This document shows, piece by piece, positions 1-32,830 of a DNA stretch of 64,000 nt. Origin of the DNA: Pyrinomonadaceae bacterium (GTDB lineage: Bacteria > Acidobacteriota > Blastocatellia > Pyrinomonadales > Pyrinomonadaceae). A model generated the notes under the pieces. That model made no database searches and was not told the DNA's origin. It worked only from the letters and a program-made list of their open reading frames with translations. A program made the position numbers and the translations under genes. Position 1 is the first letter of the stretch; each line of letters starts with the position of its first letter. The DNA is taken from NCBI GenBank assembly GCA_050748205.1, contig JBOGOU010000513.1, positions 9,966-73,965 on the forward strand, written 5' to 3'.

Positions 1-1366
1 GCGATATAACCAATGCGGAGCCGACGCTAAGCCGAAAACGGCCACGTCTTCCCCGAGTCGCCGTCTCTTTCAATGCCGATGTGAGATCAGTTCTTGTAGC
101 GCGGACGGCCGGGATGATGCCAAAGAGAAGCCCGGCGGCAAGCGAGATTCCGATGGTGAATCCGAGCACCGCAAAGTCCGGGTTAACATTCAGCGGCGCG
201 GTCTTGGCCAGGAGAGTAACTAAAACGCTGACAGCCCATTGCGCAAGAAAAATCCCACACATCCCTCCGATTACGGCAAGCAGAACACTCTCGGTGAGTA
301 GTTGGCGAATCAATCGAATGCGACTGGCCCCGAGCGCTTGTCGCAACGCGATTTCCGCTTGTCTTGCAGCGCCACGTGAAAGCAGCAGATTGCCGATATT
401 GGCGCAGGCTATCAACAACACCAGCAGCACGATCACCATCAGCATTTTCAAGGCTTCTGAATAGAAGAAACGCAATCCGGAAAGCCCGCGACCGCCTGGC
501 GCGAGCCGAACATATGAATTTTGTATACTTCGCCGGCGATCATCTGTTAACTGCGTTCCGGCTTGCTCGGTCAGGAATTGTTGTAGCTCCAGAGCGACAC
601 TGGCCTGGGCCTGTTCGATGTTGGTATTTGGCTTAAGCCGCCCCAGCATGTTTAGCCAGTAGACGGTTTCGTCCTTCAGGAATGAGTCCCGCATCCCTAT
701 CTGTGGCTGAAACGTAAGCGGCAACCAATAGTCCGGAGATCGTCGCACGCGCTCGCCGAAAAATTCGCGTGGCATGACACCAACAATTCTGAACGAGGTG
801 CCGTTCAGCACCACATCTTTGCCCACCGCTTGCTCGTCTTTGTTCCACTGCTGCTCCCAACAGCCGTAACTGATCACGGCTGCGGGTTGAGCATCAGGCG
901 CATCGTCTTCATTCCCAAGTACCCGGCCGTGCAAGGCACCGACACCGAGAACAGCAAAGTAATTACCGGAGACTAGATGACCCGATGCTCGCCGTGCGGC
1001 TCCACCACTCTGCGAGCCCACCTTCCACACACTCAGCCGGTCTTCGCCACTGCGAAAGGCGCTGAGTTCCTGGAAAGATGGATCATGATCTCGGAAATAA
1101 CGGTAGGCGGCATAAGAAAACAACCTCCATTCCCCGGTCGCCGGATCGCCTGTCGAGATCCCTTCACTTTCCGAATCGTTGAAGAGAACCAGGTCTTCAG
1201 GGGTTTTTACCGGCAGGGGTTTCAACAACACGGCATTAATTAATGTGAAGATGGCCGTGTTCGCTCCAATACCCAACGCGAGCGTAATCACCGCCACCAG
1301 GGTAAAGGCCGGACGCCTCAGTAACCCTCGGAGACCATAGCGAATGTCTTTCCAAATCGAGTCCAT
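1..1366 (-). CDS. ABC transporter permease, ADOP family (duplicated MacB_PCD+FtsX); N-terminal ~455 codons only, 3' end lies beyond the window start
   Basis: Minus-strand ATG at 1366 with GGAG upstream. My translation reads [40 protein letters not shown]... and later ...LLIACANIGNLLLSRGAARQAEIALRQALGASRIRLIRQLLTE, matching the 11 complete paralogs. The frame is open to base 2. It is missing from the ORF track only because it runs off the edge. Confidence 0.85.
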   Translation of the reverse strand, partial: MDSIWKDIRYGLRGLLRRPAFTLVAVITLALGIGANTAIFTLINAVLLKPLPVKTPEDLVLFNDSESEGISTGDPATGEWRLFSYAAYRYFRDHDPSFQELSAFRSGEDRLSVWKVGSQSGGAARRASGHLVSGNYFAVLGVGALHGRVLGNEDDAPDAQPAAVISYGCWEQQWNKDEQAVGKDVVLNGTSFRIVGVMPREFFGERVRRSPDYWLPLTFQPQIGMRDSFLKDETVYWLNMLGRLKPNTNIEQAQASVALELQQFLTEQAGTQLTDDRRRSIQNSYVRLAPGGRGLSGLRFFYSEALKMLMVIVLLVLLIACANIGNLLLSRGAARQAEIALRQALGASRIRLIRQLLTESVLLAVIGGMCGIFLAQWAVSVLVTLLAKTAPLNVNPDFAVLGFTIGISLAAGLLFGIIPAVRATRTDLTSALKETATRGRRGRFRLSVGSALVIS

Positions 1367-1470
1367 GTGCTCCAATCTCCTATTCCGTGAATCAATTTTC
1401 AGCGAACATTGTCGATTGCCGATTAACTTGGTCTTCGCACTTTGTTGCTAACGTCTGCTCACTTGGCGGC

Positions 1471-1517
1471 GACGCTAATCTCAAATCCGAAATCCGCAAT
1501 CCGAAAATTCGAAATTC
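1471..1517. repeat. Heptad array, family A (GAAATCC type), single arm with polar module
   Basis: gacgctaatctcaaatccgaaatccgcaatccgaaaattcgaaattc ends 1 nt from the stop at 1519. Only a degenerate partner (attgtcgattgccgatta, about 1407-1425) is present. Confidence 0.8.
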
Positions 1518-1518
1518 T

Positions 1519-3981
1519 TCATTCGTATCGCAGCGCCACCAATGGATCGACCTTTGTCGCTCGGCGTGCCGGGACCAGACAAGCGACGAGAGCCACGAGC
1601 ACAAGCAACAAAGGAAACACTATGAAAGTCGTCACGTCGTAAGCGCTGACCCCAATCAATACTGACGAAAGGACACGGGCAAGGGCGAACGACAAGGCCA
1701 GCCCGATTACCACTCCGACTAGCGCCAACTTCATGCCCTGATTCGTGATCAGCTTCAATACATCACCGCGTCTTGCCCCGAGCGCCATGCGAATGCCGAC
1801 TTCGCGTGTGCGCTGCGATACGACATAGGCCATGACGCTGTAGAGCCCAACCGCGGACAACAACAGCGCTACTACTGCAAACGACAATGACAGAGTCGCT
1901 GCCATGTTCGGCGCCCAAAGTGCCCAGGTCATGTGTTCGTTCATCGTCTTAATCGCAAATAAAGGAATGCGCGGATCAAGCGCCTGCACTTCGTTGCGAA
2001 TCGCGCCGACTAGATTGCGCGGATCGCCATCAGTGCGGACCATCAACGTCATGCTCCCAGGGCTGCGCTGCTCTAGTGGATAGTACAAATAGGGACGCGG
2101 ATCTTCTGCGAGTGCTCGGTACTTGCCGGTTTTCACCACCCCAACCACTTCAATCGCGTCAGGACTATTGGGACCGATGAAGATACGCTTGCCAACAGCG
2201 CTCTCACCCGGCCAAAGCATTTGCGCCATCCTTTCGTTGACGATGACGACGCGCTGCGCGCCCTTGCGATCGCGGTCATCAAAATCGCGACCAGCGATCA
2301 TGGGGATCTGTAATGTCTTGAAGTGTCCAGGGCTGATGACGTTGGTCAGGATAGTACGGCCAGCGCTTCCCGGGCTTAGTGTTTCGCCCTCTTTCAAGAC
2401 GGGGCCGTTTGAATTGGAGCTGTCTCCCAAAGGCACCAAACGCGCGAGGCTGGCAGCCTGCACGCCGGGCAAGTTGCCTGCGCGTTCCGCAATTTGGCGA
2501 AAGAAAGTCTTTGTCTGTTCCTCGTTATAGCCAACCAGTTCCGGATTCAATGAAACCAGCAGCGCGCTCCTGGCTGAAAAGCCCGGATCCATTGTCTGTG
2601 CGTTGCGAAAACTCTTGATGAAGAGTCCGGCACAAACCAGCACCACGAGCGATAAGGCAACCTGGCCCACAACCAGGGAGTTCCGCAGCGAAAGCCGGCG
2701 ACGTTTGCCTGATTGTCCTGTACCTACATCGCCCTTCAGTACCGGTACGATCTCAGGATTCGACGCGTGCCATGCCGGCGCGAGACCAAAGATCAACCCC
2801 GTAGCTAATGAAACAACCAACGTGAATACAAGGGCGCTCTCGTCGAGCGCAAAGAAATCGTTGACCACGTTGTAGGGCAAAACCGGAACGAAGCCTTGCA
2901 TCAGACCCGTTACCCAATTAGCCAGCAAGAGTCCTAGTCCGCCACCCATCAGTGAGAGCAGCAGGCTTTCAGTCAGCAGTTGACGAAGCAGACGTACGCG
3001 ACTAGCTCCCAGTGCCACACGGACGCCGATTTCTCTCCGGCGTGAGGCTGCGCGTGCCAACAGCAGGTTCGCGACGTTCGCGCACGCAATAAGCAGAATG
3101 AGACAAACTATCGCCATGGCGATGGCTGATGCGCTTTTCATGATTCGTGACGCGTCGCCCCAACGCCCGTCAACCTCTGTCCGCACCACTACTGCGGTGT
3201 TACTTGCTCGATCGGTTGGGTAGGCCCGGTTCAAACGTTGCGCGATTGCCGACATTTCCGCACTAGCCTGCGTCCGAGTAACGCCTGGCTTCAGCCGGGC
3301 GAACATATTCATCCAGTGGTCGCCACGCGAACTCAACAAATCTGGTGCGTGCTGGAGGTCTTCAACCATCATCATGGGCGTCCAGAAGTCGAGGGAAAGA
3401 CCACTTTTCGTTCCCTTGAAAGATGCGGGCGCAACTCCAATCACGCTATAAGTGCGGTTGTTCAGCTCGATCGTTTTCCCGACAATGTTCGGATCAGATG
3501 AGAGGCGACGCTGCCATAGGCTGTGACTGATCACGAGGACGGGTTTTTCGCCACGCGTCTTATCTTCGTCAGGCGCAAAGGGGCGGCCCATAAATGGCTT
3601 CACTCGCAAGACCTCAAAGTAGTTTCCACTAACCACCTGGCCCCAGATGACGTCATTTTGATTCTGGGTGCTTATTGCTGCCTGTGCCAGGTCTTCGGCT
3701 ACGATTCCTTCAAAGACCGTGTTTTGATCTCGATAGTCGACATAGTCGGGATAAGAGAAACTGTCATTGAGGCCGCGATCGTCGGTTGTCTCGAACGGCC
3801 GGACCAGTTGCTCTGGTTCGGGTACCGGCAACGGGCGCAAAACAAACGCGCTGACGCCGCTGAAGATCGCCGCGTTTGCGCCGATACCGAGGGCGAGCGC
3901 GAGCACGGCCACTATCGTGGTGCCCGGCGCCTTCGCCAGCATGCGAATTCCGTAACGAAGGTCTTGCCAGAATGTCTGCAT
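1519..3981 (-). CDS. ABC transporter permease, ADOP family
   Basis: ORF 1519..4071. I moved the start to ATG 3981 (MQTFWQDLRYGIRMLAKAPG) because the 30 upstream codons only translate the heptamer repeat (..NPKSAIRN..). It has two [12 protein letters not shown]/FtsX blocks and ends [15 protein letters not shown]. Confidence 0.9.
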   Translation of the reverse strand: MQTFWQDLRYGIRMLAKAPGTTIVAVLALALGIGANAAIFSGVSAFVLRPLPVPEPEQLVRPFETTDDRGLNDSFSYPDYVDYRDQNTVFEGIVAEDLAQAAISTQNQNDVIWGQVVSGNYFEVLRVKPFMGRPFAPDEDKTRGEKPVLVISHSLWQRRLSSDPNIVGKTIELNNRTYSVIGVAPASFKGTKSGLSLDFWTPMMMVEDLQHAPDLLSSRGDHWMNMFARLKPGVTRTQASAEMSAIAQRLNRAYPTDRASNTAVVVRTEVDGRWGDASRIMKSASAIAMAIVCLILLIACANVANLLLARAASRRREIGVRVALGASRVRLLRQLLTESLLLSLMGGGLGLLLANWVTGLMQGFVPVLPYNVVNDFFALDESALVFTLVVSLATGLIFGLAPAWHASNPEIVPVLKGDVGTGQSGKRRRLSLRNSLVVGQVALSLVVLVCAGLFIKSFRNAQTMDPGFSARSALLVSLNPELVGYNEEQTKTFFRQIAERAGNLPGVQAASLARLVPLGDSSNSNGPVLKEGETLSPGSAGRTILTNVISPGHFKTLQIPMIAGRDFDDRDRKGAQRVVIVNERMAQMLWPGESAVGKRIFIGPNSPDAIEVVGVVKTGKYRALAEDPRPYLYYPLEQRSPGSMTLMVRTDGDPRNLVGAIRNEVQALDPRIPLFAIKTMNEHMTWALWAPNMAATLSLSFAVVALLLSAVGLYSVMAYVVSQRTREVGIRMALGARRGDVLKLITNQGMKLALVGVVIGLALSFALARVLSSVLIGVSAYDVTTFIVFPLLLVLVALVACLVPARRATKVDPLVALRYE

Positions 3982-3990
3982 AGCGTCTCC

Positions 3991-4150
3991 AAATTGCCGA
4001 TTTCGGATTGCGGATTTCGGATTTTGTCTGAACCAATGTCGATTTATTCCGGGTCGAGTCTTTGTTGGCATTGCTCAGAACTTGTCAAACAGAATGCTAT
4101 TCGGTTGCACTACACAAATTTCGAAATCCGCAATCCGAAATCCGAAATTC
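3991..4150. repeat. Heptad-zipper element, family A, full copy
   Basis: The left arm is 3991-4025 (aaattgccgatttcggattgcggatttcggatttt). The right arm is 4116-4150 (aaatttcgaaatccgcaatccgaaatccgaaattc). They share 20 nt of perfect complementarity (atttcggattgcggatttcg) across a spacer of about 90 nt. Confidence 0.9.
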
Positions 4151-4157
4151 CTATGCC

Positions 4158-6596
4158 TCACTCGTAGCGCAGTGCCACCAGCGGATCGACTCTTGTGGCG
4201 CGGCGGGCCGGGAGGTAACAAGCAATTAGAGTGATCACAAACAAGCCAATTGCTACCGCTGCAAAAACGCTCGTGTCGGTCGTAGTTACTTCAAACAAAA
4301 GCGACACCATCAATCTGGTAAGTCCGAAAGACGCGATCAAGCCGGCTGCCACGCCGATTACTCCAAGGACGATGCCCTGTCTTACGACAAGTTTGAGCAC
4401 ATCGCTGTATTGAGCGCCCAAGGCCATGCGCAAACCGATTTCGTGAGTGCGCTGCAGCACGGAATAAGACATGACGCCGTAAATTCCCACCGCCGCCATC
4501 ACCAGGGCAACAAACGAAAAGACCGAGAGCAGTGTGGTATTGAAGCGCGACCGGGCAATGGACTTCGCAAGCAGACTGTCCATCGTGCTGACTTCACCAA
4601 TAGGTTGTTCGGGGTCGAGACCATGAATTACGTTTCGCGCAGCCGGCGCAATATTTAGAGCATCGCCTCGCGTTCTGATTACCACGGTCATGTACGGATA
4701 GGTCAGCTCCGGGTGGGCCCAGTAGGACATCGGTTCGATCTCCGCATCGAGGCCCATGTGTTTGTTGTCGCCGACGACCCCGATAATCTCCGAGGGGACA
4801 TTTTCGTCCTTCATGTCAATCGTTACTCGTTTGCCAATTGGATCTACCCCGGGCAAATACTTGCGCGCGAATGTCTCGTTAACGACGACGACGTGGCGCA
4901 TTTCACTCGCCTCTTGATCGGTGAAGAAGCGGCCCCGCTTGAGTGGGATCTGCATCGCCTGAAAATAGTATGCGTCGGTAACGCAGACACCGGTGATCAG
5001 TCCCTGGCCGGGCGGCAACTTTGGCTGGCCCTCGATTTCTACTCCTGTGCCCGAATGCGGTCCGGTGAACGGAAGAGTATTGATCGCTCCCACGGCCTCG
5101 ACTCCGGGAAGAGCTCGTACTTGCTCCACAGCTCGTCTGAAGAAATCGATTCGCTTGCTCTCGGTGTCATACTTTCTCATCGGCAGGCTGACACGCATCG
5201 TTAATAGGCTCTTTGGATTGAATCCAGGATCCACTGACTGCAGGCGGTTGAGGCTCTTCATGAGCAGACCGGCGCCCACGAGCAATACCAGGGCGAGAGC
5301 TACCTGGGTAACAACGAAGAGATTGCGGAAGCGATGACTACGCGCACCGCCGCCTATGTTTTTTACGCCTTCCTTAAGTGCTTCCTGGAGGTTGAAGCGT
5401 GCAGCCTCGAGCGCCGGCACCAGCCCGAAAAAGATTCCAGTCAGCAAAGACACGCCAAGTGTGAATCCCAGGACCGGGAGGTTCACTCTTACGTTACGGA
5501 GATCGATAAGCTCAGGCGGGCTGAGAGCGAGGAGAGCCTGCGTCCCCCACCACGCTACGAGCAAACCCAGCGCGGCTCCTAGTCCTGACAGGAGCACACT
5601 CTCGGTCAACAACTGCCGGACAATACGCCAGCGACTGGCGCCGAGCCCTGCTCTCACTGCTATCTCTCTTCTCCGTGAGGCAGCACGCGCCAGCAGGAGA
5701 TTTGCCACGTTCGCGCAGGCAATCAATAAGACAAAACCTACAGCGCCGAGCAAAATCAGCAACGGCTTGCGGATCTCACCGGTAAATTGAGCGCGCAGGG
5801 GAACAACGGTCACGCCCCACTTGGTGTTGAATTCCGGGTATTGCCCCTCGAGCCTCGCGCCAATGGTGTCCATCTCGCTCTGTGCCTGGGCAAACGTGAC
5901 ACCGGGCTTTAGGCGGGCCACAGCGCGGGCGAAGCGACCTTGACGCTGGCGCAATTCGTTTGAGACTTGCCACGGTGACCACATTTCCGCTGCCTTGTTG
6001 GTCATCGAGCCCTTCTGTATGTGCCACGCAAAATCGGCAGGTAAGACACCGATGATTGTGTTCTCCTGATTGTTTAGAGTGATCTTGCGACCAACGATCT
6101 GGGCGTCTCCACCAAAACGCCGTTGCCACAGTCCGTAGCTGATGACGATTACATTCGGCTGCCCTGTTTTGCCATCATCAGGTGCGAATGTACGTCCCAG
6201 AATTGAATTGACACCCAACAGAGAAAAGAGATTTGTCGTGGCAATTTGTCCCGGCACTTCTTCGGGTTCACCATTGCCTGTCAGATTAAGGGTGAGATCG
6301 AAAAACGCCGCCATGTCGGAGAAGACCGTGTTCTGCTCTTTCCAGTCGAAGAAGTTACCCAGATTAATCACGTTCTGCACGTCGGTCTTGCCCTTTTGTT
6401 TCTTCTCCCAGACGACTACCAGCCGTTCGGCGTCTGTATAGGGCAAGGCGCGCAGCAACACCGCATGGACCACACTAAAAATCGCAGTGTTAGCGCCAAT
6501 CCCGAGGGTCAAGGCGATCACCGCCACTAGAGTCACCACCGGGTTCTTCAGCAACATTCGCGCCCCAAACCGCAGGTCTTGCCACAATGTGTGCAT
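4158..6596 (-). CDS. ABC transporter permease, ADOP family
   Basis: 812 aa, MHTLWQDLRFGARMLLKNP ... [42 protein letters not shown] ... [26 protein letters not shown] lies about 5 nt upstream of the ATG. Confidence 0.92.
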   Translation of the reverse strand: MHTLWQDLRFGARMLLKNPVVTLVAVIALTLGIGANTAIFSVVHAVLLRALPYTDAERLVVVWEKKQKGKTDVQNVINLGNFFDWKEQNTVFSDMAAFFDLTLNLTGNGEPEEVPGQIATTNLFSLLGVNSILGRTFAPDDGKTGQPNVIVISYGLWQRRFGGDAQIVGRKITLNNQENTIIGVLPADFAWHIQKGSMTNKAAEMWSPWQVSNELRQRQGRFARAVARLKPGVTFAQAQSEMDTIGARLEGQYPEFNTKWGVTVVPLRAQFTGEIRKPLLILLGAVGFVLLIACANVANLLLARAASRRREIAVRAGLGASRWRIVRQLLTESVLLSGLGAALGLLVAWWGTQALLALSPPELIDLRNVRVNLPVLGFTLGVSLLTGIFFGLVPALEAARFNLQEALKEGVKNIGGGARSHRFRNLFVVTQVALALVLLVGAGLLMKSLNRLQSVDPGFNPKSLLTMRVSLPMRKYDTESKRIDFFRRAVEQVRALPGVEAVGAINTLPFTGPHSGTGVEIEGQPKLPPGQGLITGVCVTDAYYFQAMQIPLKRGRFFTDQEASEMRHVVVVNETFARKYLPGVDPIGKRVTIDMKDENVPSEIIGVVGDNKHMGLDAEIEPMSYWAHPELTYPYMTVVIRTRGDALNIAPAARNVIHGLDPEQPIGEVSTMDSLLAKSIARSRFNTTLLSVFSFVALVMAAVGIYGVMSYSVLQRTHEIGLRMALGAQYSDVLKLVVRQGIVLGVIGVAAGLIASFGLTRLMVSLLFEVTTTDTSVFAAVAIGLFVITLIACYLPARRATRVDPLVALRYE

Positions 6597-6620: not shown

Positions 6621-6655
6621 GGCTATAGGTCCAAAAAGTCCTATAGGTCCTATAA
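6621..6655. repeat. 9-nt tandem repeat, family B (TATAGGTCC / CCTATAGGA)
   Basis: ggctataggtccaaaaagtcctataggtcctataa, 10 nt from the stop at 6666. Confidence 0.85.
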
Positions 6656-6665
6656 CGCAATTCCT

Positions 6666-9074: not shown

Positions 9075-9094
9075 AGCGAATCCCCCACTTCAAT

Positions 9095-9124
9095 GCCAAT
9101 TGCCGATTGCCAATTGCCGATTTT
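9095..9124. repeat. Heptad array (GCCRATT x4)
   Basis: gccaattgccgattgccaattgccgatttt, 20-50 nt upstream of ATG 9074. Confidence 0.85.
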
Positions 9125-9288: not shown

Positions 9289-9291
9289 GGC

Positions 9292-11751: not shown

Positions 11752-11788
11752 GTTCACTCCTTATTCGTACCTTAGTGCCACCAACGCC

Positions 11789-23525: not shown

Positions 23526-23537
23526 GGCTTTGTCTCC

Positions 23538-23660: not shown

Positions 23661-23661
23661 C

Positions 23662-26157
23662 CTATTCATAACGCAGCGCCACGAGCGGATCTACTTTCGT
23701 TGCGCGGCGCGCTGGTAGGTAACTCGCTAACAGCGCCACTCCCCCCAGGAGCAACGAAAGTGATACGAATGTAACTGGATCTGTAGTGCTGACGCCGAAT
23801 AGCAGGCTTGATAGCAAGCGCATCAACGCGAAAGCCGCTGCCAGGCCGAGCCCGATGCCGAGCAGCGCCAGAATCATTCCCTGTCTGATGACTAACTTGA
23901 GAACGTCGCCCGCTTGCGCGCCGAGCGCCATGCGGACGCCGATTTCGCGCGTGCGCTGCACGACGGAGTAAGAGATGACCCCGTAAATGCCGACTGCGGC
24001 AAGCAGCAACGCCACCCCGGCGAACATCGTCAAGAGCAGGAAGTTGAATCGCGGCTGCGCGACCGAAGTTGAAAGCAGTTGCGACATGGTGCTGATGTTC
24101 GCCACGGGCTGGTCCTTGTCCAGACTCGCAACCGCTTGTCGCACCGAACCAGTGACGCTCATCGGATCGCCAGTGGTGCGTATGACAAGTGTCATATCCC
24201 TACTCGGGCGCTGCTCGAGAGGCACGTACATTTCCGGCGCGGCGGCCGTCGTCAGGCCGATATGCCTTACATCGCCCACCACGCCCACGATTTCGCGCAT
24301 GCCAGCGGGCAAATCCAAATCAGGCGCACGATCGGGATGAAACTTCATCGCTTCGAAATTGAGTGTTACTCGTTTGCCGATGGGATTCTCATTGGGCCAG
24401 TAGCGTCGCGCCATCGTTTCGTTGATGATCGTGACACGTGCTGAGTTTTCGTTGTCCTGGTCCGTGAAATATCGTCCTGCCCGCAGTTGTACGCCGAGCG
24501 CACGGAAGTAGTCCGGCGTCACATCGCGGTAATGCGTTTCCCAGTTTTGACCACGTCCCGGCAGCGGCCGGCCCTCAATGAAGATGCCCGTCGAGCTATC
24601 CAGACCGCTCAGAGGGAGATATTCGACCGCGCCAACTGAAACAACACCTGGCAGCGTTTTCACCCGCTCGATTAGTTGTTGATAGAACCCGTTGATCTGG
24701 CTGTTCTCCCGATACTTTGCTTCCGGCAGGTTAATGTCCATGGTCAAGACGTTGTCGGGCTGGAAGCCAAGGTCAACTTGCTGCAAACGCACGAAGCTTT
24801 TGATCATCAGGCCAGCCCCGATCAGCAGCGTCAGAGATAGTGCGAGCTCAGCTACGACCAACAGGTTGCGAGTGCGACCACGTCGCGAACCCGAACGTAA
24901 CCCGCCTTCTTTGAGTGCATCGTTCAAGTCGGGCCGTGAGGCCTGAAACGCAGGCAGGAGACCGAAAATAATTCCGGTCAAGAGTGACAGTGCGATAGTG
25001 AATCCAAGCACGCGCCCGTCAAGCCCGATCTGCTCTCGCGGAATGTCGTAGGGAACAAACAAGCTGCGGGTCGAGTAAGGGAATTTGGCGAGCACGGCAA
25101 CGCCCCAAACCGCGAAGATCAGACCGAGGCCGCCGCCCATAATCGCCAGCAGAATATTTTCGACGAGCAACTGCCGGATCAGGCGCCAGCGGCCCGCGCC
25201 AAGTGCGGCGCGGATGGCGATCTCTTTTCGTCTGGTGGTGACCCGCGCCAATTGCAGATTGGCAACATTGGCGCACGCGATGAGCAGAACAAAGCCCACT
25301 GAACCGAACAGGACCAGCAACGCCAGGCGCAAGTTCTTAACTACTTGCTCCTCCAGCGGCGCAACCTTGATGCTCCAGCCGGAATTGATGTCAGCGTACC
25401 GCTGTTCAAGCCGGCCCGCGATTGTGTTCAATTCGCTCTGCGCCTGGATCGCAGACACGCCCGGCTTGAGTCGAGCTATTACTCCGAGCGAACCTACGCC
25501 GCGCGCATACTTGCGATCTCGAAACGAATCGAGACCGAAGGGAAGCCAAACCTCAGTATCCTTGGGAAAGCTGAGGAAGTTGAATCCGGGCGGCAAGATG
25601 CCGGCGATTTCATAGCCCTGCCCGTCAAGCGTGATTGGCTTGCCGACAACATTGCGATCCGATGCGAAGCGTCGCGCCCATAGACTGTTGCTGATCAGTA
25701 CGGCACGCGAAGCCCCTGGCTGCTCCTCTTCGGGCAGAAATGCGCGGCCGTAACTCGGCGTCACTCCGAGCACCGAGAAGAAGTTTGTCGACACTATTGC
25801 GTACTGAACCTGCTCAGGTTCCGCGTTGTCGTTGCTGCTGTCCGTGAGATTGAACCGGCCGAGAGTCCATGCACTCATGCCGTCAAGAGTCCGGCTTTGC
25901 GCTTGCACATCGTTGAAGTTTGGCAGCGAGAAAGGCACTTGCAAGCGGCCCTGGTTAGGCTTGCTACCCCAAAGCAGCACCAACCGATCGGGTTCATTGA
26001 AAGGCAGGGCCCGCAACAGCACGGCATTGACGACGCTGAAGATCGCAGTGTTGGCGCCTATCGCCAGCGCTAACGCCAGGACGGCCACGACGGTAAATGA
26101 AGGGTTCTTAGCCAGTACCCGGGCGCCGTAACGTATGTCTTGCCACAGTGTGTGCAT
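23662..26157 (-). CDS. ABC transporter permease, ADOP family
   Basis: The ORF track starts at TTG 26178. I prefer ATG 26157 because of a GGAGA SD upstream, giving [22 protein letters not shown]. Ends [15 protein letters not shown] with a TAG stop. Confidence 0.9.
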
Positions 26158-26181
26158 GCCATTCTCCAGTGAATCCAATTC

Positions 26182-26220
26182 GGCTATCGGTCCAATAAGT
26201 CCTATAGGTCCTATAGGTCA
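26182..26220. repeat. 9-nt tandem repeat, family B
   Basis: ggctatcggtccaataagtcctataggtcctataggtca overlaps the stop of 26218..28638. Confidence 0.85.
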
Positions 26221-28638
26221 TTCGTATCGCAGGGCCACCAGCGGATCTACTTTCGTTGCGCGCCGCGCCGGCAAGTAGCAAGCGAGTAGCGCTACCAGGA
26301 GCAAACCGGCTGTGACGATCGAGAACGTCAACGAGTCGGTAGGCGTGACCCCAACTAAGAGGGTCGCCAGTAACCTTGTTAAAGCAAATGCTCCCGCCAG
26401 CCCGAGCACCACGCCAATCAAGGCGAGTGACATTCCGTTTGTAACTACCAGCTTCAAAACGTCTGCTGCTCGCGCTCCAAGCGCCATCCGGATGCCAATC
26501 TCTTGCGTACGTTGTGTGACTGCGTAAGACATCACGCCGTAGATCCCGATCGCTGCCAGGATTAGGGCCACGCCAGCAAAGATGCCGATTGAAACTGAGG
26601 AAAAACTGTAAAGAGATACTGAGAAGGCGCGCACCTGGTCCATTGTGCGCACGTCATATACTGGTTGGTCCTTATCCAGAGACCACACCTGCTGTCGTAA
26701 TGGCCCGGCGAGACTTATCGGGTCGACCTTTGTCTTTGCGACCAGCACCATCGATTGCCACGGATCCTGAGCGTGCGGCAGGTAGAAATCAGGAGTGACA
26801 GGAATGTTCAAATCGTGTTTGACGTCCTGCGCTACTCCTACCACTTCCATCCAGGGGGCCTTGTCCGGCGGCCCCGTGAAACGCATTCGCTTTCCAAGCG
26901 CTGTCGTGTCGGACCAGAACCTCTTTGCCAGGGTTTCGTTGACAATGATTACTAGTGGCGCGTCAGCTCTATCTTGATCCGTGAAACCGCGTCCTTTCAC
27001 GATCGGAATTCCCATCGTCTCGAAGTAGCGAGGAGTGCAAACTCTGTAGCGGCCGATGAAATCCTGGCCCGGTGGCGGCTCCGGAGCACCTTCGATCAGG
27101 AAAGCGTCCGATGAATTACTGCCGCCAAGAGGCAGATAATTCACGAGTGCCGCCGATTGCACACCGGGTACTGCTTCCACGCGCGTCACAAGTTCTGAAA
27201 AAAAGGAAGCCCGCTGCGGATTCTCGGGATACTTCGCTACAGGCAAAACGAGGTGCATCGTCATCAAATTGTCGGGATTGAAACCGGGGTTGGTCTTCAG
27301 GAGCGAAACGAAACTGCGCATCAACAGACCGGCGCTCACCAACAGCATTAACGAAAGGGCTACTTCTGAAATCACGAGTAGGCCGCGCAAGCGGTGCGGG
27401 CCTGAGGAAGTTTGCCGGCCGCCTTCTTTGAGCGCCCCATTGAGATCCGTTTTTGAGATTTGCCAGGCCGGCGCGAGCCCAAACAGGAAGCCACTGAATA
27501 GCGAGAGGCCCAGATTGAAGCCGAGCACAGGCAGACTGACTCCGAGTCGATCCCATCCAGGCGCAAACTTGGCAGCCTCACCCGGATTGAGAGTGCGGAG
27601 CAGATCAACTCCCCAGTAGGCGATCAGAATTCCAAACGTGCCTCCGATGAGTGACAGGATTATGCTTTCAGTCAGCAATTGACGAACGAGTCGCCAGCGA
27701 CTCGCCCCGAGTGCTGCCCGCAGGGCCATCTCTTTCTGCCGGCCAGCGGCTCGTGCCAGCATGAGGTTAGCGACGTTCGCGCAGACAATCAGCAAGACGA
27801 ATCCGACCGCCGCCATCAAGGCCAGTATTGCGGTCTTATATAGACGCACAGTGTTCTCGACGATCGGATAAGCAATCACGCCCCAGCCTGTATTCGATTC
27901 TGCATACTCTTTTTCCAGCCGGGAGGCGATTATGTCGAGATCAGCCTGCGCGCTTGCGAGCGTGACACCGGGTTTGAGACGGCCAACGACGTAATAAGAA
28001 TGGCTCTGCCGGCTGCGCGCCAATTCGGGAGTTAGTGTTAGCGGCGCCAGCACTTCAGCACCGGCGGGATAGTTGAATCCTTCCGGCATGACAGCAATAA
28101 CAGTGCGGGTCACACCGTTAAGCGTGATCGTCTTATTTACTATGCCGGGGTCACCACCGAAGCGGCGTTGCCACAAGCCATAAGTGAGGATAGCGACCGG
28201 GTCTTTGCCAGGTTGATCTTCATCCGACCGAAAACCTCTTCCGATCGATGGCTTTGTTCCCAGCACATCCAGGAAGTTCCCTGTGACCAAAAAACCCTGG
28301 ACTCGCTCGGGAGTTTCGAGGCCTGTAAGATTGCAGCTCCACCAACGATAGAGACCCAGGCTCTCGAATGTTTGATTCTGAGCGCGCCAGTCGAGGTAAT
28401 TTGCCATCGATGCTTCATTGCGCTCGACTCCCCGACTGGGCTGCTTTTCCCAAACCGCGACGAGGCGATCGAGCTCGGGAAACGGTAGCGGCTTGAGCAG
28501 CAGCGAATTGACAACGCTGAAGATGGCGCTATTGGCGCCTATGCCTATCGCCAGCGTGAGTATCGCTATGAAACTAAGAGTGGGACGCTTTAGAAGGGAT
28601 CGGGCGGAGAATTTCAAGTCCCTGAGCAGTGAATTCAT
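26218..28638 (-). CDS. ABC transporter permease, ADOP family (first gene of the array)
   Basis: 806 aa, MNSLLRDLKFSARSLLKRPTLS ... [24 protein letters not shown] upstream of the ATG at 28638. Confidence 0.92.
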   Translation of the reverse strand: MNSLLRDLKFSARSLLKRPTLSFIAILTLAIGIGANSAIFSVVNSLLLKPLPFPELDRLVAVWEKQPSRGVERNEASMANYLDWRAQNQTFESLGLYRWWSCNLTGLETPERVQGFLVTGNFLDVLGTKPSIGRGFRSDEDQPGKDPVAILTYGLWQRRFGGDPGIVNKTITLNGVTRTVIAVMPEGFNYPAGAEVLAPLTLTPELARSRQSHSYYVVGRLKPGVTLASAQADLDIIASRLEKEYAESNTGWGVIAYPIVENTVRLYKTAILALMAAVGFVLLIVCANVANLMLARAAGRQKEMALRAALGASRWRLVRQLLTESIILSLIGGTFGILIAYWGVDLLRTLNPGEAAKFAPGWDRLGVSLPVLGFNLGLSLFSGFLFGLAPAWQISKTDLNGALKEGGRQTSSGPHRLRGLLVISEVALSLMLLVSAGLLMRSFVSLLKTNPGFNPDNLMTMHLVLPVAKYPENPQRASFFSELVTRVEAVPGVQSAALVNYLPLGGSNSSDAFLIEGAPEPPPGQDFIGRYRVCTPRYFETMGIPIVKGRGFTDQDRADAPLVIIVNETLAKRFWSDTTALGKRMRFTGPPDKAPWMEVVGVAQDVKHDLNIPVTPDFYLPHAQDPWQSMVLVAKTKVDPISLAGPLRQQVWSLDKDQPVYDVRTMDQVRAFSVSLYSFSSVSIGIFAGVALILAAIGIYGVMSYAVTQRTQEIGIRMALGARAADVLKLVVTNGMSLALIGVVLGLAGAFALTRLLATLLVGVTPTDSLTFSIVTAGLLLVALLACYLPARRATKVDPLVALRYE

Positions 28639-28853
28639 CGATGGTTCTCCCAGCTATGACTGAAGTCGTCGTGCAAAACCGAATCTGCGAATCACCCGAG
28701 CCTCGTGCGAACAAAGTTATGGCCTCAAAAAGCCATGACACACGAGTGACGCGTTAAGGCATTCCCCAAATCCGCGTTTTCAATCAGAGCAACACCAGAG
28801 AACTAGACCTTCGGCGACGAGATCGTTTGAACATCGCCATGAAATGACATCAC

Positions 28854-30038
28854 TCAGGCGACCGTAATAACCAGCAGAGTCGCATCATCCTGAGCCTTGT
28901 CATCGCTGAATTCGCTAACCGCAGCAATAATCCGGTCTCGCAAGTCGTTAGCACTGAAGCGCCGACCACCGGTCAATAACTCCTGCAAACGCTCTTCGCC
29001 AAACTCTCTGCCAGAGGCGTTGCGGGCTTCCGTCACACCGTCGGTGAAAAGCACCAGGCAGTCACCCGGCAGCAAGTCGATCTCATCCTGCAGATAACCA
29101 TGACCGGGGAAGATGCCGAGTACCGGGCCGCCTTCTTTCAGCCTTACGCAATTCCCGTCACGGATCAGCATCGGCGGGCAGTGGCCGGCGTTGGCGTATG
29201 AAAGTTTCTTGTTTTGAGTATCTAAGAGAGCGTAGAAGCAACTAATGAATCTATACGCGACGATGTTGTCGCACATCACGCCATTGACCTGCGCGCAGAG
29301 CTCGCTGGGAGCCACCGTGTCTGAGGCGAAAGACTTCACCGCGGCCTGCACACTTGACATTACCAGCGCCGCTGGCAGGCCCTTGCCGGCAACGTCCGCG
29401 ATGCAGATTGCGGTATGACGGTCGCTGAACTTCAGCACATCGAAGTAGTCGCCGCCGACCGCGCGCGCTGGTTTCCAGCTGACGGCAACCTCAAAACCTT
29501 CGAGGCGCGGGAGCTGTTTCGGCAACAGGGCTTCCTGGATTTCTTGTGACTCAGTCAACTCCTGTTGCAGTTTTCGCCTCACGGTCCGGTTTTCCGCGTT
29601 CAGAAGTCTTTGTTGCCGCCGCTTACGGCCCAGTTCGATTTGGGTACGCAAACTCCTAAGCAGCTGCGGGTTGTCCCAGGGCTTTAACACGAAGTCGCGT
29701 ACGCCACGATGCATAGCTTCCACGGCCAGCTCAACAGAACCCCAGGCTGTAAGAACCACGACCGGTAACGTGCTATCCAGACTGTGAATATTTGTGATTA
29801 GGTCCAGACCCTCCTGGCCCGAGGTGGTGTCACGCGCGTAATTAAGGTCCATCAGCACCAGATCGAAATTGCTCTGCTTGATCGCCTCCAGCACCGCTGC
29901 CGGCGAACTTACTCCTTCGGTTTGGAAGCCTGCCCCTCGGAGCAACAAACGCAGCGCAGCCAGCACGTCGGGCTGATCGTCGGCGATCAGGGTGCGGGGG
30001 ACCGGCGCGGGAAGCTGTGTTGTACTCGTTATGTTCAT
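28854..30038 (-). CDS. Response regulator (REC) fused to a PP2C/SpoIIE-type phosphatase (RsbU-like)
   Basis: The REC domain reads IADDQPDV...FDLVLMDLNYARD...VVVLTAWGS...KPW. The PP2C part reads GGDYFDV...ICIADVAGKGLPAAL...GHCPP...LVLFTDGVTEA...DDATLLVI. A GGAG SD lies upstream. Confidence 0.85.
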   Translation of the reverse strand: MNITSTTQLPAPVPRTLIADDQPDVLAALRLLLRGAGFQTEGVSSPAAVLEAIKQSNFDLVLMDLNYARDTTSGQEGLDLITNIHSLDSTLPVVVLTAWGSVELAVEAMHRGVRDFVLKPWDNPQLLRSLRTQIELGRKRRQQRLLNAENRTVRRKLQQELTESQEIQEALLPKQLPRLEGFEVAVSWKPARAVGGDYFDVLKFSDRHTAICIADVAGKGLPAALVMSSVQAAVKSFASDTVAPSELCAQVNGVMCDNIVAYRFISCFYALLDTQNKKLSYANAGHCPPMLIRDGNCVRLKEGGPVLGIFPGHGYLQDEIDLLPGDCLVLFTDGVTEARNASGREFGEERLQELLTGGRRFSANDLRDRIIAAVSEFSDDKAQDDATLLVITVA

Positions 30039-30059: not shown

Positions 30060-30725
30060 TTATTCCTTGACTACCCAGCCGTCTTCAAGCTTCACGATCC
30101 GGTTGCCGTAGGCCGCGTTGATTTCCGAGTGCGTCACTTGCACAATCGTGGTGCCTTCGTCGTTGAGTCGCTTGAACATATCCATGATCTCTTTCCCCTG
30201 ACTCGAGTGGAGGTTTCCCGTCGGTTCGTCCGCGAGAATGATCCGCGGCTTTGCCACTACCGCGCGCGCAATGCCTACAAGTTGCTGCTGTCCACCGGAG
30301 AGCTGGCTGGGGAAGAGATCCTTCTTAGCTACGATCTGAAACCGATCGAGCGTGTCACAGACAATTGATTGCCGATCTTTCCTGCTGACGTCTCGATACG
30401 AGAGAGGTAACTCGAGATTCTCGAAGACGGTTTGGTCATCCAGCAGATGGTAGCTCTGAAACACAAAGCCGATATTGCTGTTGCGCAAGTGCGCGCGCTT
30501 CTTGTGGTCGAGCGTATGAACGGGCACGTCATCGAAATAATATTCGCCCGCCCACGATTGATCGTGCATTCCCAGAATGTGCAGCAGGGTCGACTTTCCG
30601 GCGCCTGAAGGCCCCATAATCGAGACAAACTCGCCCGGCCTTATGTCGAGATCGATCCGGCGCAGGACAAATGTTTTCGTGGGACCGTGCGAAAATGCCT
30701 TCTCAATGTTGCGTAGAGTGATCAT
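30060..30725 (-). CDS. ABC transporter ATP-binding protein (MacB/LolD-type NBD), copy 2, with a variant D-loop
   Basis: Walker [11 protein letters not shown]-loop FVFQS, signature LSGGQQQL, Walker [10 protein letters not shown]-loop GNLHS (His where Asp is expected), H-loop VTHS. The start overlaps the upstream stop as ATGA. Confidence 0.9.
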
Positions 30726-31486
30726 CCAATCGCTCCAAAGCCACTCTCTTTCAGCTCACGCTTTGCTTCCTGGATTTCGCGCCGGTTGGATCCCGCCTCT
30801 TCTTCGACGATAAGGCCGTCAAAGAGGTGCACGATGCGATCGGCATGCTGGGCGTAGCGCGGATCGTGGGTAACCATGCAAATCGTCGCGCCACCGCGAT
30901 GCAGTTCGCGCAAGAGTTCCATCACCGCTTCGCCGTTGGTCGAATCAAGATTGCCGGTGGGCTCATCCGCAAGCAGGATGCTTGGCTGTCCGCCGACTGC
31001 GCGCGCCACCGCTACACGCTGTTGTTGGCCGCCCGAGAGTTGGCTGGGCAGATGCTTGGCGCGGTGCGCCATACCCACGCGCTCCAGGGCTTCAGTCACG
31101 CGCTTCTTTCTGTCGGCCGAGTTCATGCCGCGATACGTCAACGGCAACTCGACGTTTTCATAGACTGTGAGGTCGCCAATCAGATTAAAACTCTGAAAGA
31201 TGAAGCCTACCTCGCGGTTGCGAATGCGGGCCCGCTGAGACAGTGAAAGATCCTCAACGGGGTGGTCATTGAGAACGTACTCGCCATCGCTGGGTGTATC
31301 GAGTAACCCGAGGATCGATAGCAGTGTGGATTTACCGCAGCCCGACGGCCCGGCAATCGAAACGTATTCACCCTTCTTGATGTCGAGATGTATGCCGGAA
31401 AGCGCGTGTGTCTCGACTTCGTCGGTGTAGAAGACTTTCTTGACGTCGGCAAGGTGAATAAGGGGATCAGTTGAAGTCATTAGCAT
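30722..31486 (-). CDS. ABC transporter ATP-binding protein (MacB/LolD-type NBD), copy 1
   Basis: Walker [47 protein letters not shown]. All motifs are canonical. Confidence 0.92.
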   Translation of the reverse strand: MLMTSTDPLIHLADVKKVFYTDEVETHALSGIHLDIKKGEYVSIAGPSGCGKSTLLSILGLLDTPSDGEYVLNDHPVEDLSLSQRARIRNREVGFIFQSFNLIGDLTVYENVELPLTYRGMNSADRKKRVTEALERVGMAHRAKHLPSQLSGGQQQRVAVARAVGGQPSILLADEPTGNLDSTNGEAVMELLRELHRGGATICMVTHDPRYAQHADRIVHLFDGLIVEEEAGSNRREIQEAKRELKESGFGAIG

Positions 31487-31573
31487 GTCTCCTTCGTGCT
31501 ATTGGGAACACGATCACATTATCGTGAACACCGCAAGTTGGATTTCTATGGCAATTTCAACGTTGTGACTAAT

Positions 31574-32830
31574 TCAGCGCACGCGTATTCGATTGTAGTT
31601 GTCCAGGGTCGACGTATCAGACAGGATCACCTGATCGCCTTCGCGCAAGCCGCTCACTATTTCGATCACGCTGACCGAATTGCGCCCCAGGGTGACCTGC
31701 GTGCGCACCGCTTCCTGGCCATCGGCACTCAAGCGAAATAGGCCTACGGTTTGTTGTCCCTGCCCAAACGCGGGACGTCCCACGTACAAAACGTCGTTGA
31801 GACGCTCGAGTTCGATCGTTCCATCCACGCTCAAGTCAGGCCGGGCACTTGCAGGCAGTGGTCCAATCAATGTGGCGTCGACGGTGAATGTGCCTTCGCG
31901 GGCCGCCGGGTCGATGCGCGAGACTTCTCCTTGAATTACGCCGTTCCGCGTGTCGACCGCCACGGGTTGGCCGAGTTTGACGTCTGTGATTTGCGTCTCG
32001 GCAATCTTCAGCTCGGCCTTAAGGGAAGCGGGATCGGCAACTCGCGCGATGTTCAGTCCCGGCGTGACTTGTTGGCCCACCTGCACCGTGACCTGTTGCA
32101 ACACTCCACTGGTACCGGCTCTCACTTTCAGAGCCTCAACCTGTTCTCTTTTAAGTTTGGCAAGAGCACGCAATTGCTGAAGCCGTGCCTCCTGGGCATT
32201 GATTTGGGCTTTAGTTGATCTCGAGCTTATGGTTAGTCGCTGCTGCTCCACCTTGAGCCGGTTAGCGAGGTTCTGCACGTTTACGCGAGAGATTTTTAGT
32301 AAAAGGTCCGGGACGAGTCCCTGTTTGGCAAGCACCTCATCCGTGTCAAGCTGCAATTTTGCCTGGCTATACTCGGCATTGATCGTGGCAATCGCAGACT
32401 GCTGCGTCATGTTCTCGCTTTCCAGGCGCACGCGCAGATTCTCCTCGTCAGCCTGTGCCGCTTTCACTTGAAAGTCAGCATCAATTGCCTGTTGCTCCAT
32501 CTGCGGATTCGAAAGTTCGACAATTACCGTATTGACTCCTACTTCAACTCCCGCTTGTACTAGAAGCCTTTCGACTCGACCATCTGCGGGCGCCGGTACC
32601 CAGCGAATCAATTGCGGAACAAGTGTGCCAATGCCCCTAACCTCCCGCTTCATCTCTCCTCTCTTGACCGTGTCAATCACAGCAGTGGAACGGTCGAGGG
32701 TGGGCGCGGCAGGCTTGAGTTTGGTGAGACCAAAAGTGATTCCGCCGATGGCCACGAGACCAAAGACAATCAAGGTCGCGGTGCGAATCCGTTTCTTAAG
32801 TCTCGATTTTGCGGGGCGCTTGATATCCAT
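31574..32830 (-). CDS. HlyD-family / MacA-like periplasmic adaptor (membrane fusion protein)
   Basis: It has an N-terminal TM (TATLIVFGLVAIGGITFGL), a long coiled-coil-like Q/A/L-rich middle, and lipoyl/beta-barrel-like ends (G.V..L.V..G..V; I.GEVSRIDP). Confidence 0.85.
   Translation of the reverse strand: MDIKRPAKSRLKKRIRTATLIVFGLVAIGGITFGLTKLKPAAPTLDRSTAVIDTVKRGEMKREVRGIGTLVPQLIRWVPAPADGRVERLLVQAGVEVGVNTVIVELSNPQMEQQAIDADFQVKAAQADEENLRVRLESENMTQQSAIATINAEYSQAKLQLDTDEVLAKQGLVPDLLLKISRVNVQNLANRLKVEQQRLTISSRSTKAQINAQEARLQQLRALAKLKREQVEALKVRAGTSGVLQQVTVQVGQQVTPGLNIARVADPASLKAELKIAETQITDVKLGQPVAVDTRNGVIQGEVSRIDPAAREGTFTVDATLIGPLPASARPDLSVDGTIELERLNDVLYVGRPAFGQGQQTVGLFRLSADGQEAVRTQVTLGRNSVSVIEIVSGLREGDQVILSDTSTLDNYNRIRVR

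Follow-up and report, generated by a model that had tools for sequence, protein, structure and literature searches.

The minus strand of a 64,000-nucleotide stretch of DNA from a Pyrinomonadaceae bacterium (contig JBOGOU010000513.1; the whole stretch is called the window below) carries genes for a HlyD/MacA-type periplasmic adaptor, two ATP-binding cassette (ABC) ATPases of separate nucleotide-binding domain type (NBD1 and NBD2) and a receiver-phosphatase protein (REC-PP2C), and behind them a tandem array of genes of the family known in the literature as "acidobacterial duplicated orphan permease" (ADOP; e.g. PMC3914696). We explain the locus, with moderate confidence, as a split type VII (MacB-like) ABC system whose many alternative permeases share a single adaptor/ATPase module. 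It is most likely that the ADOP family has an ATP motor, and this motor is probably shared. Across at least three phyla an adaptor/ATPase module is associated with ADOPs and with no other permease.

The open reading frames (ORFs) of the window were searched with Pfam and NCBIfam/TIGRFAM profiles, the cutoff of the ADOP profile TIGR03434 being 622.3 bits. ORF listing and profile searches give the minus-strand order adaptor, NBD1, NBD2, REC-PP2C and then 12 ADOP genes, and they reproduce the gene boundaries, the strand and the shared direction reported in a preliminary description of this DNA. The adaptor (31574-32830, 418 residues) matches TIGR01730 at 98.7 bits against a cutoff of 94.9, as well as Pfam HlyD_3, HlyD_D23 and Biotin_lipoyl; inspection of its sequence places a hydrophobic N-terminal membrane anchor at about residues 18-38, and its matches to the DarC, EmrA and DevB profiles lie below cutoff. 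NBD1 (30722-31486) is a MacB/LolD-type ABC ATPase with the canonical motifs GPSGCGKS, LSGGQQQR, DEPTGNLD and VTHD. The start of NBD2 (30060-30725), a second ABC ATPase with LSGGQQQL, a D-loop histidine (DEPTGNLH) and VTHS/N, overlaps the NBD1 stop by 4 nt. REC-PP2C (28854-30038) joins a Response_reg domain to a SpoIIE/PP2C phosphatase, with the receiver Asp and the PP2C motifs present, and is followed by a 215-nt spacer (28639-28853) that holds only a weak hairpin.

The array occupies 28638 of the 64000 nt (44.7% of the window, close to the 45% first estimated), with gaps of 39-217 nt between its genes. It begins with ADOP1 (26218-28638, 806 residues, a canonical 8-helix duplicated permease, 1024 bits against TIGR03434) and ADOP2 (23662-26178, an 838-residue ORF from TTG whose likely true start is M8, 1041 bits), and continues with the chimeric ADOP3 (21108-23525, with three FtsX matches and one MacB_PCD match), ADOP4 (18627-21065, 812 residues, 1055 bits), ADOP5 (16463-18502, 679 residues) and ADOP6 (14552-16354, 600 residues). 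Both of the latter carry internal deletions by profile and alignment, that of ADOP5 lying in periplasmic domain 2. The distal part consists of ADOP7 (11966-14404, 812 residues, 980 bits), ADOP8 (9292-11757, 821 residues, 932 bits), ADOP9 (6666-9074, 802 residues, 1013 bits), ADOP10 (4158-6596, 812 residues, 1016 bits), ADOP11 (1519-4071, an 850-residue ORF in which the family match from residue 34 points to a start at 3981, 958 bits) and the N-terminal 455 residues of ADOP12 (1-1366, 463 bits over ADOP profile positions 1-421), a gene that leaves the window at base 1. The array of 12 genes originally described thus stands as a count, with the qualification that three members are rearranged and the last is cut by the window edge. 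All 11 complete ORFs, from 28638 to 1519, exceed the TIGR03434 cutoff (719-1055 bits vs 622.3). Pfam resolves two MacB_PCD and two FtsX stretches in each of ADOP1, ADOP2 and ADOP4; for ADOP7-11, which match the ADOP profile over its full length (1-803), the internal duplication is read from TIGR03434 and not from Pfam. When all window ORFs of at least 90 residues were scanned with an ADOP/FtsX profile, no FtsX/MacB permease besides the ADOPs came up; these are therefore, as had been claimed, the sole permeases of this type near the two NBD genes, and Pfam/NCBIfam searches of the other large ORFs found no further ABC component, TolC-like protein or histidine kinase. A possible thirteenth ADOP at 58515-60968 (plus strand, 817 residues) was rejected, being a molybdopterin (xanthine-dehydrogenase-type) subunit despite its fitting length.

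The fold of the ADOPs was approached with an AlphaFold2 model of ADOP1 as a single chain, for which 30 paralogous and orthologous sequences were aligned as input (pLDDT 84.4, pTM 0.73). In this model the first half runs through an N-terminal amphipathic helix, transmembrane (TM) helix TM1, a beta-rich periplasmic domain (residues 59-264), TM2, a coupling helix (301-309), TM3 and TM4, and the second half repeats this unit, with TM5, its periplasmic domain at residues 458-673, TM6, the second coupling helix at 711-719, then TM7 and TM8 and, closing the chain, a terminal helix at 799-804; the halves are joined by a short, disordered, low-confidence cytoplasmic linker (404-411). The eight long helices are assigned as TM helices, and the predicted architecture is that of a direct 4+4 single-chain MacB-type permease. 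In it TM1 is separated from TM2 by an extracytoplasmic domain, and TM2 from TM3 by a coupling helix, the arrangement that defines type VII permeases. Foldseek against the PDB places YbbP on top over the full length (E 2e-20), followed by MacB, Spr0695, LolE and BceB, each over one half, with HrtB also matched; by sequence the closest solved permease chains are Spr0695 and MacB. The modelled fold is thus that of ATP-driven type VII permeases, and a direct 4+4 fusion looks new, a keyword search of the text of a MacB-family review having turned up no such protein.

Conservation within the array is unevenly distributed. Eight complete ADOPs are canonical by alignment, and among these the mean pairwise identity is 92.5% for the C-terminal tail, 80% for coupling helix 2, which holds the MacB-type motif QRTxEIGIRMALGA, 60% for coupling helix 1, 50-65% for the TM helices and 34-36% for the periplasmic domains. 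This bears out, in numbers, the earlier remark that TM segments and termini are conserved and periplasmic domains divergent; judged from the alignment, the elements that would dock an ATPase, as they do in MacB-type transporters, appear to be kept constant across the paralogues while the substrate-facing domains diverge. Over their whole length the paralogues of the window are only 32-50% identical in pairs, and orthologues stand at corresponding places in related loci: ADOP1 has them at 72% identity in two loci (L002 and L004) and ADOP7 at 73% in a third (L003), and the NBD1 proteins of these three loci are 92-94% identical to that of the window. Such low identity within the array, together with positional orthologues at 72-73%, argues that the paralogue diversity is maintained and is not recent junk, and the paralogues look old and not like recent duplicates. 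The closest homologues of the ADOPs come from named Pyrinomonadaceae or Blastocatellia; the family is present also in loci of Gemmatimonadota and Verrucomicrobiota and has been reported in Bacteroidota (PMC3914696), and about 30 copies in a single genome are on record in the literature.

The three remaining complete members are rearranged with frames still open. In ADOP3 a C-terminal FtsX-type segment stands in for about residues 32-190, the first ~160 residues of periplasmic domain 1; missing from ADOP5 is the part that corresponds to ADOP1 residues 498-631 (~134 residues of periplasmic domain 2), and ADOP6 lacks that of residues 390-598 (~209 residues, comprising TM5 and most of periplasmic domain 2), so that its topology, read from the alignment, is probably broken. 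The in-frame chimera and the two deletions point to ongoing unequal exchange within the array.

The preliminary description had suggested that this locus may show the missing motor of the ADOPs, and had stated that ADOPs are essentially never next to ABC ATPase genes. Two synteny surveys bear on both statements (their 160 loci are numbered L001-L160). The first scanned one genome per species with NBD1 and yielded 80 loci with flanks of up to 10 kb from Acidobacteriota, Gemmatimonadota and Verrucomicrobiota, in which ORFs were labelled with profiles built from the window genes; denominators of 73 and 68 are subsets of these 80. The second, made on metagenomes with conserved ADOP motifs as seeds, added 80 ADOP-centred loci. 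On the NBD1 side, the gene just upstream of NBD1 is HlyD in 59 of 73 loci, the same strand holds one or more ADOPs in 54 of 80, and the very next gene after NBD1 is an ADOP in 33 of 68. A non-ADOP FtsX permease was found in none of the 80, on the basis of profiles and a Pfam check of large unlabelled neighbors; the large unlabelled ORFs beside NBD1 in loci that lack ADOPs, considered as candidate permeases, proved to be glycosidase, lipase, hybrid kinase or of no known kind, and none was FtsX. In these loci the HlyD-NBD module thus neighbors ADOPs frequently and never has another permease of its own, the opposite of the pattern that had been named as refuting the missing-motor proposal, and this, with the ADOP-side result and the conservation of the docking elements, supports that proposal. 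Within the 10-kb flanks the number of permeases per module ranges from none to at least seven. The exact window order HlyD-NBD1-NBD2-REC/PP2C-ADOPs is repeated in two of the ADOP-centred loci (L082 and L157).

Seen from the other side, most ADOPs of the ADOP-centred loci stand in tandem arrays of up to 8-9 genes within ~20 kb. NBD1 or NBD2 occurs in 16 of these 80 loci, and in 4 of the 13 where about 10 kb is available on both sides; the view of ADOPs as essentially never adjacent to ABC ATPase genes is therefore outdated. Every ATPase on the ADOP strand in this set is an orthologue of NBD1 (at least 390 bits) or NBD2 (at least 322 bits), and the sole other ABC ATPase match (62 bits, in L135) lies on the opposite strand. 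Many ADOPs nevertheless are physically orphan. A second subclass of about 900 residues carries an N-terminal "permease prefix domain 1", has a TIGR03433 PadR regulator upstream and is often solitary, the PadR ORF lying directly upstream of the ADOP in 16 of 19 cases; these solitary members keep, in their sequences, the coupling helices and the C-terminal tail. Neither the PadR regulator nor the prefix domain occurs with the ADOPs of the window. Examples of the subclass are L085 (PadR and ADOP at 9388-9741 and 9698-12424), L147, L109, L154 and others, and in L033 and L061, where a PadR ORF is also present, an ADOP of ~930 residues lies directly upstream of HlyD-NBD1. As to the name, we take "orphan" to mean that no ABC ATPase is fused or adjacent; it is a descriptive part of the name and not of the HMM definition. 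In the window this feature is absent, two ATPase genes lying 1.4-2.8 kb upstream on the same strand, and 54 of the 80 NBD1 loci are alike in this respect.

These observations bear directly on the idea that ADOPs are independent of any ATPase, serving as passive receptors, anchors or sensors, and that the adjacency reflects co-regulation or clustering of envelope genes. The family name speaks for it, as do the 64 of 80 ADOP-centred loci that show no ATPase in reach (many of them on short contigs) and the large subclass that is paired with a PadR regulator and not with an ATPase. However, coupling helices and tail would then be without a role and yet be the most conserved parts of the protein, matching the MacB docking motif and persisting in the solitary PadR-type members; the module would be without any other permease in all 80 loci; and the fold is that of ATP-driven type VII permeases. 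ATPase independence fits these data poorly, and we regard it as highly improbable.

The favored explanation can be put as follows. Each ADOP would be a single-chain pseudo-dimer of two MacB-type half-permeases, each with 4 TM helices and one periplasmic domain, that has no ATPase of its own and would dock separately encoded ATPases through its two coupling helices and C-terminal tail. The motor would be the core module of HlyD adaptor and NBD1 (with NBD2), and the adaptor would cap the paired periplasmic domains as MacA does on MacB. By count within the window, one adaptor gene and one NBD1/NBD2 pair face at least 12 permease genes, a ratio that suggests that the permeases alternate on a common engine. 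Different substrate specificities would stem from the divergence of their periplasmic domains, and by analogy with MacB, LolCDE and YbbAP the pumps would draw their substrates from the periplasm or the outer leaflet. NBD1 would probably pair with NBD2 in an asymmetric heterodimer, in keeping with the non-equivalence of the two permease halves. Expression or activity of the module may be tied to a two-component pathway, represented by the receiver-PP2C protein here and by a sigma54 activator with a histidine kinase in most other places. Direct observation covers gene content and order, conserved synteny, the fold, intact catalytic motifs and the pattern of conservation. The complexes of NBDs and of the adaptor with ADOPs are inferred, as are the heterodimer, what is transported and in which direction, and the organization of the genes as an operon; likewise, that one engine serves all the permeases, both in cis and in trans, we infer from gene stoichiometry and conservation.

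The alternative to sharing is a conventional one-to-one pump surrounded by paralogue clutter, in which the module serves one cognate ADOP, or the proximal few, and the rest are decaying duplicates or use ATPases elsewhere. Such a reading gains from the many related loci that resemble a classical operon in having a single ADOP, placed among the module genes or behind them (e.g. L021, L026, L029, L034, L039 and L056), from the recombinational rearrangement of 3 of the 12 window copies, and from the strong hairpins that break up the array. It has to contend with eight full-length intact ORFs above cutoff whose docking elements are 80-92% identical against 32-50% overall, with distal copies that have conserved orthologues (ADOP7, 73% in L003), with the recurrence of arrays of 4 to at least 9 ADOPs on a single module (L005, L102, L113, L126 and L157) and with the lack, among the 80 ADOP-centred loci, of any other ATPase type adjacent to an ADOP or on its strand. 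Moreover, no permease lies within reach in 26 of the 80 NBD1 loci; in two of these (L011 and L013) HlyD, NBD1, NBD2, a sigma54-type response regulator and a histidine kinase stand, in differing order, amid unrelated genes. With no permease in cis these 26 modules must work in trans. We consider the one-to-one pump unlikely.

The two ATPases give evidence of their own. They are 48% identical to each other, and in both the Walker A, Q-loop, signature, Walker B-Glu and H-loop motifs are intact, so that by sequence both appear to be catalytically competent ATPases of the MacB/LolD/FtsE subfamily; the closest solved chains to NBD1 are Spr0694, MJ0796, MacB, YbbA and LolD. Three motifs separate them without exception among 92 NBD1 and 49 NBD2 orthologues: LSGGQQQR in 92/92 of the former against LSGGQQQL in 49/49 of the latter at the residue after the signature, DEPTGNLD (92/92) against DEPTG(N/S)LH (49/49) at the Walker B/D-loop, and VTHD (92/92) against VTHS or VTHN (49/49) at the H-loop. 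NBD1 and NBD2 thus behave as two consistently distinct ATPase families, and the second, with its invariant D-loop histidine, looks new. On general structural knowledge of ABC proteins, we take all three motifs to lie towards the partner NBD once the dimer has bound ATP. An NBD1-NBD2 heterodimer is made plausible by these differences, by the 4-nt gene overlap and by docking elements that differ in conservation between the two permease halves. NBD1 is 71-95% identical to orthologues from three phyla, and in 76 loci that are not close relatives the identity to the window protein is on average 78% for NBD1, and it is 68% for NBD2, 50% for the adaptor and 43% for the best ADOP. This gradient is suggestive of an ATPase constrained by many partners.

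The same gene pair could instead represent two separate engines, an NBD1 homodimer that powers the ADOPs with the adaptor and an NBD2 that belongs, together with the response regulator and kinase or the REC-PP2C, to the signalling side in the manner of BceAB-BceRS, where the kinase senses the activity of the transporter, with no heterodimer. Of the 80 NBD1 loci, 37 have NBD2 and 29 the receiver protein; NBD2 is accordingly absent from 43, a receiver protein adjoins it in 15 of 43 NBD2 cases and is no more than 3.5 kb away in 26 of 43, and in several loci (L005, L011, L014, L017 and L020) it is set apart from NBD1 by permeases or placed upstream of HlyD, all of which speaks for this reading. 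YbbAP, moreover, is a fused permease with a homodimeric ATPase (PMC12646458). On the other hand, NBD1 and NBD2 overlap or abut in the window and in its closest relatives (L001-L004, L031, L080, L082 and L157), which suggests coupled translation; the changes specific to NBD2 fall at the motifs taken to face a partner NBD; and the permease halves have unequal docking elements (60% vs 80-92%). Two separate engines appear rather unlikely on balance. The most elaborate form of the shared-motor explanation is a combinatorial system in which a slow-evolving NBD1-NBD2 heterodimer and a MacA-like adaptor dock interchangeably on dozens of 8-helix permeases, encoded in cis arrays or in trans as solitary genes under PadR control; this we put forward tentatively, with somewhat more doubt than assurance.

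A number of observations weigh against a shared motor or against parts of it. Adjacency of ADOPs and module is frequent and not obligatory: the 26 NBD1 loci just mentioned and most ADOP-centred loci do not show both within 10 kb. Other MacB-type ATPases may exist elsewhere in the genome. Three of the 12 window permeases are rearranged. Very stable hairpins between many of the ADOP genes, and the 215-nt spacer in front of the array, leave a single transcript unproven. A heterodimer is not required by the data, NBD2 being found in fewer than half of the NBD1 loci and often beside a response regulator; it is followed immediately by the receiver protein in 15 of 43 NBD2 cases, and NBD1 lies directly upstream in just 16 of 43. 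To our knowledge the NBDs are always the best conserved subunits of ABC systems, which is why the gradient of identities is only suggestive. In the well-known Lol system the heterodimeric LolCE permease is driven by a LolD homodimer. The fused permease YbbP likewise uses an NBD homodimer (PMC12646458). Finally, a search for genes of the OEP/TolC family in the window, and immediately upstream of the module in 10 related loci, found none. The tolC gene of E. coli is encoded elsewhere in its genome, and an OEP partner could be likewise here.

Comparison with characterized systems places the module between several of them. MacAB-TolC (PDB 5NIK, 5GKO and 5LIL; E. coli, A. baumannii and A. actinomycetemcomitans) shares the 4-TM half-permease with MacB_PCD between TM1 and TM2, the coupling-helix motif, the C-terminal tail, the ATPase subfamily and a membrane-anchored adaptor of the HlyD family. 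However, MacB is a homodimer with its ATPase fused N-terminally, whereas in ADOPs the halves are fused in one chain and the ATPases are separate genes; here there are also two different ATPase genes, 12 permease genes per adaptor and no TolC-like gene nearby. Spr0693-0694-0695 of Streptococcus pneumoniae (PDB 5XU1) gives the best sequence match among solved structures (2e-65 for NBD1 and 5e-20 for a permease half) and likewise has adaptor, ATPase and permease as separate genes, but it has one permease and one ATPase gene and its permease is a single-domain homodimer.

The best whole-chain fold match to ADOP1 is found in YbbAP-TesA of E. coli (PDB 9GE6-9GE8). YbbP, a type VII permease, is a pseudo-symmetric single chain that has two extracytoplasmic domains and binds separately encoded ATPase subunits through two coupling helices (PMC12646458). 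It has 10 TM helices (4 + 2 linkers + 4; PMC12646458), in contrast to the 8 TM helices and short disordered linker of the ADOP1 model; BceB, with YbbP the fused type VII permease described so far, likewise has ten TM helices including two linker helices (PMC12646458 and the MacB-family review). Unlike the ADOP module, YbbAP has one ATPase gene whose product forms a homodimer, no adaptor, and the hydrolase TesA as a partner, and the NCBIfam matches to YbbP (~21 bits vs a cutoff of 999) and YbbA (163-213 bits vs 336) lie below the equivalog cutoffs. The predicted module would work like MacAB or Spr0693-0695, with the single-chain logic of YbbP, and falls outside both definitions, having no fused ATPase and 8 rather than 10 helices.

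More distant likenesses are to LolCDE, which has two non-identical MacB-type half-permeases and separate ATPase subunits, and whose LolD is among the best NBD matches, but in which LolC and LolE are separate chains, the motor is a LolD homodimer, no adaptor or paralogue array exists and the task is lipoprotein extraction. The darobactin exporter DarBCD provides the top NCBIfam matches of both ATPases (DarD, 257 and 249 bits) and a DarC match to the adaptor, and DarB is likewise a duplicated permease with a profile of ~777 positions; these matches are nonetheless far below the equivalog cutoffs (375, 450 and 700 bits), the ADOP-DarB scores are 18-44 bits, and no dar biosynthetic genes are present. 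BceAB-BceRS resembles the locus in that its type VII permease and its ATPase are genetically linked with a two-component system, and BceB is a fold match as well; it differs in the 10 TM helices and single extracellular domain of BceB, in an OmpR-type regulator and in having neither adaptor nor arrays.

The proposed logic of one energizing module for many components is that of the shared-ATPase systems. In group II energy-coupling factor (ECF) transporters and with MsiK/MsmK, one ATPase module serves many membrane components encoded elsewhere; we know of no type VII (MacB-like) example of a shared motor. S. aureus FhuC provides a further shared-ATPase example (PMC10147376). In these importers of other ABC types the logic is established; for the present module sharing is a proposal.

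Parts of the arrangement have been seen before. Genomic island 43 of Psychroflexus torquis carries a 42-kb cluster of about ten ADOP paralogues whose proteins are abundant in the proteome, and the cluster adjoins other transporter genes, some with ATP-binding regions (PMC3914696); P. torquis belongs to the Bacteroidota, and that paper neither proposes that the ATPases drive the ADOPs nor surveys the arrangement comparatively. Among the papers searched we found none tying ADOPs to a dedicated ATPase, and in keyword searches neither the YbbAP paper (PMC12646458) nor the MacB review, in which only "adopted" was hit, discusses the ADOP family. All parts of the system are of known kinds, and ADOPs beside ATP-binding transporter genes were drawn already in 2014 (PMC3914696); the present analysis extends known biology. 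Its interest lies in the great size of the family and in an "orphan" status that can now be put to a direct test: a search with ADOP1 at E <=1e-30 returned 75,581 cluster representatives at 50% identity, and ADOP-type permeases are among the largest uncharacterised membrane-protein families of soil bacteria. The survey turns the label "orphan, function unknown" into a testable model of MacB-like mechanotransmission pumps with exchangeable permeases and a shared motor. If its combinatorial form is true, soil bacteria have a library of periplasmic substrate-recognition heads on a common motor, as an exporter-side analogue of the group II ECF transporters, and a mechanism is assigned to a family of ~75,000 clusters at 50% identity.

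Regulation of the module appears to vary in its output domain. A REC-PP2C protein is at the same place in seven related loci (L004, L045, L058, L082, L102, L117 and L157), and most other loci have instead a sigma54-activator response regulator (REC-AAA+-HTH) with a histidine kinase. The receiver domains of these PP2C-fused proteins and of the sigma54-type proteins compared with them (L011, L013, L054 and L064) score 170-200 bits against each other's profiles and occupy corresponding positions in the module. Judged from these sequences, the difference looks like a swap of output domains. Matches to a sigma54-type -24/-12 promoter, defined as at most 2 mismatches with the GG/GC core intact, lie 21-77 nt before the HlyD start in 13 of 69 related loci (L005, L016, L019, L026, L038, L046, L054, L056, L057, L068, L073, L074 and L077) vs ~4% of controls. 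In the window itself such sites are not enriched (34 matches to TGGCAC-N5-TTGCW vs 34.4 expected), and the best of them, at 33010-32995 on the minus strand, lacks the GC of the -12 box.

The spacers of the array are of several kinds. That between REC-PP2C and ADOP1 (28639-28853) forms a hairpin of -19 kcal/mol (z -1.8) with one weak terminator-like match and no promoter-like (sigma70-like) match; the equivalent junction in relatives measures 19-49 nt or is an overlap. The possibility that this 215-nt spacer is the remnant of a lost permease was rejected, since a comparison with the corresponding spacers in relatives showed no similarity. Among the inter-permease spacers that at 18503-18626 is a long REP-like (repetitive extragenic palindrome) hairpin of -55 kcal/mol (z ~-7), and others filled with hairpins lie at about 23526-23661, 14405-14551, 11758-11965, 4072-4157 and 1367-1518. 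These inter-permease hairpins reach -50 to -56 kcal/mol (z -6 to -7) and are made either of 7-nt units or of an 85-nt inverted repeat. Tandem units TTCGGAT, TTCGAAT and TGCGGAT build near-perfect hairpins right after stop codons at 1477-1505, 4118-4146, 11933-11961, 14519-14547, 18525-18622, 23542-23656, 51585-51697 and 57626-57727, and the 7-nt unit motif has 37 matches in the window vs 0.39 expected, some outside the array. Because they also follow unrelated genes of the window, the hairpins are read as genome-wide REP-like elements and not as array-specific signals; they could terminate, pause or stabilise transcripts.

Three further repeats occur in array spacers and elsewhere in the window. 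Tandem 9-nt units (CCTATAGGA-C/T) at 26190-26217, 21080-21107, 6629-6656 and 53102-53129 directly follow the stops of four minus-strand genes, i.e. three ADOPs and one unrelated membrane protein (9 matches vs 0 expected). An inverted-repeat element of ~85 nt (GTGGCACAGACTTTAGTCTGTG ... CACAGACTGGAGTCTATGCCAC) is present in three copies, at 16373-16460, 11791-11878 and 55475-55556, with a folding energy of -49.6 kcal/mol (z -7) for one copy; the TGGCAC end of the element resembles a sigma54 -24 box. A GC-rich element of ~25-45 nt (GAGCGAAGCAGCGACGGCGCTTTGG) is common to the ADOP8/ADOP9 spacer (9139-9163, plus strand) and the region upstream of the adaptor gene (33239-33263, minus strand), in opposite orientation; the former spacer (9075-9291) has in addition an inverted repeat of its own (9161-9184 / 9219-9242). 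Rfam gave zero matches in the window.

Beyond the adaptor gene, and divergent from it across a 691-nt intergenic region, lies a gene for a bacterial alpha-2-macroglobulin of 2000 residues (33522-39524, plus strand), followed by peptidase genes of the M28 (40294-42000) and S9/TolB-like (42787-44979) types. Still further on, a gene with a Schlafen/AlbA_2 domain (51703-53010, minus strand) lies between REP-like hairpins and is flanked by two ORFs without a family match (49296-50222 and 50351-51571).

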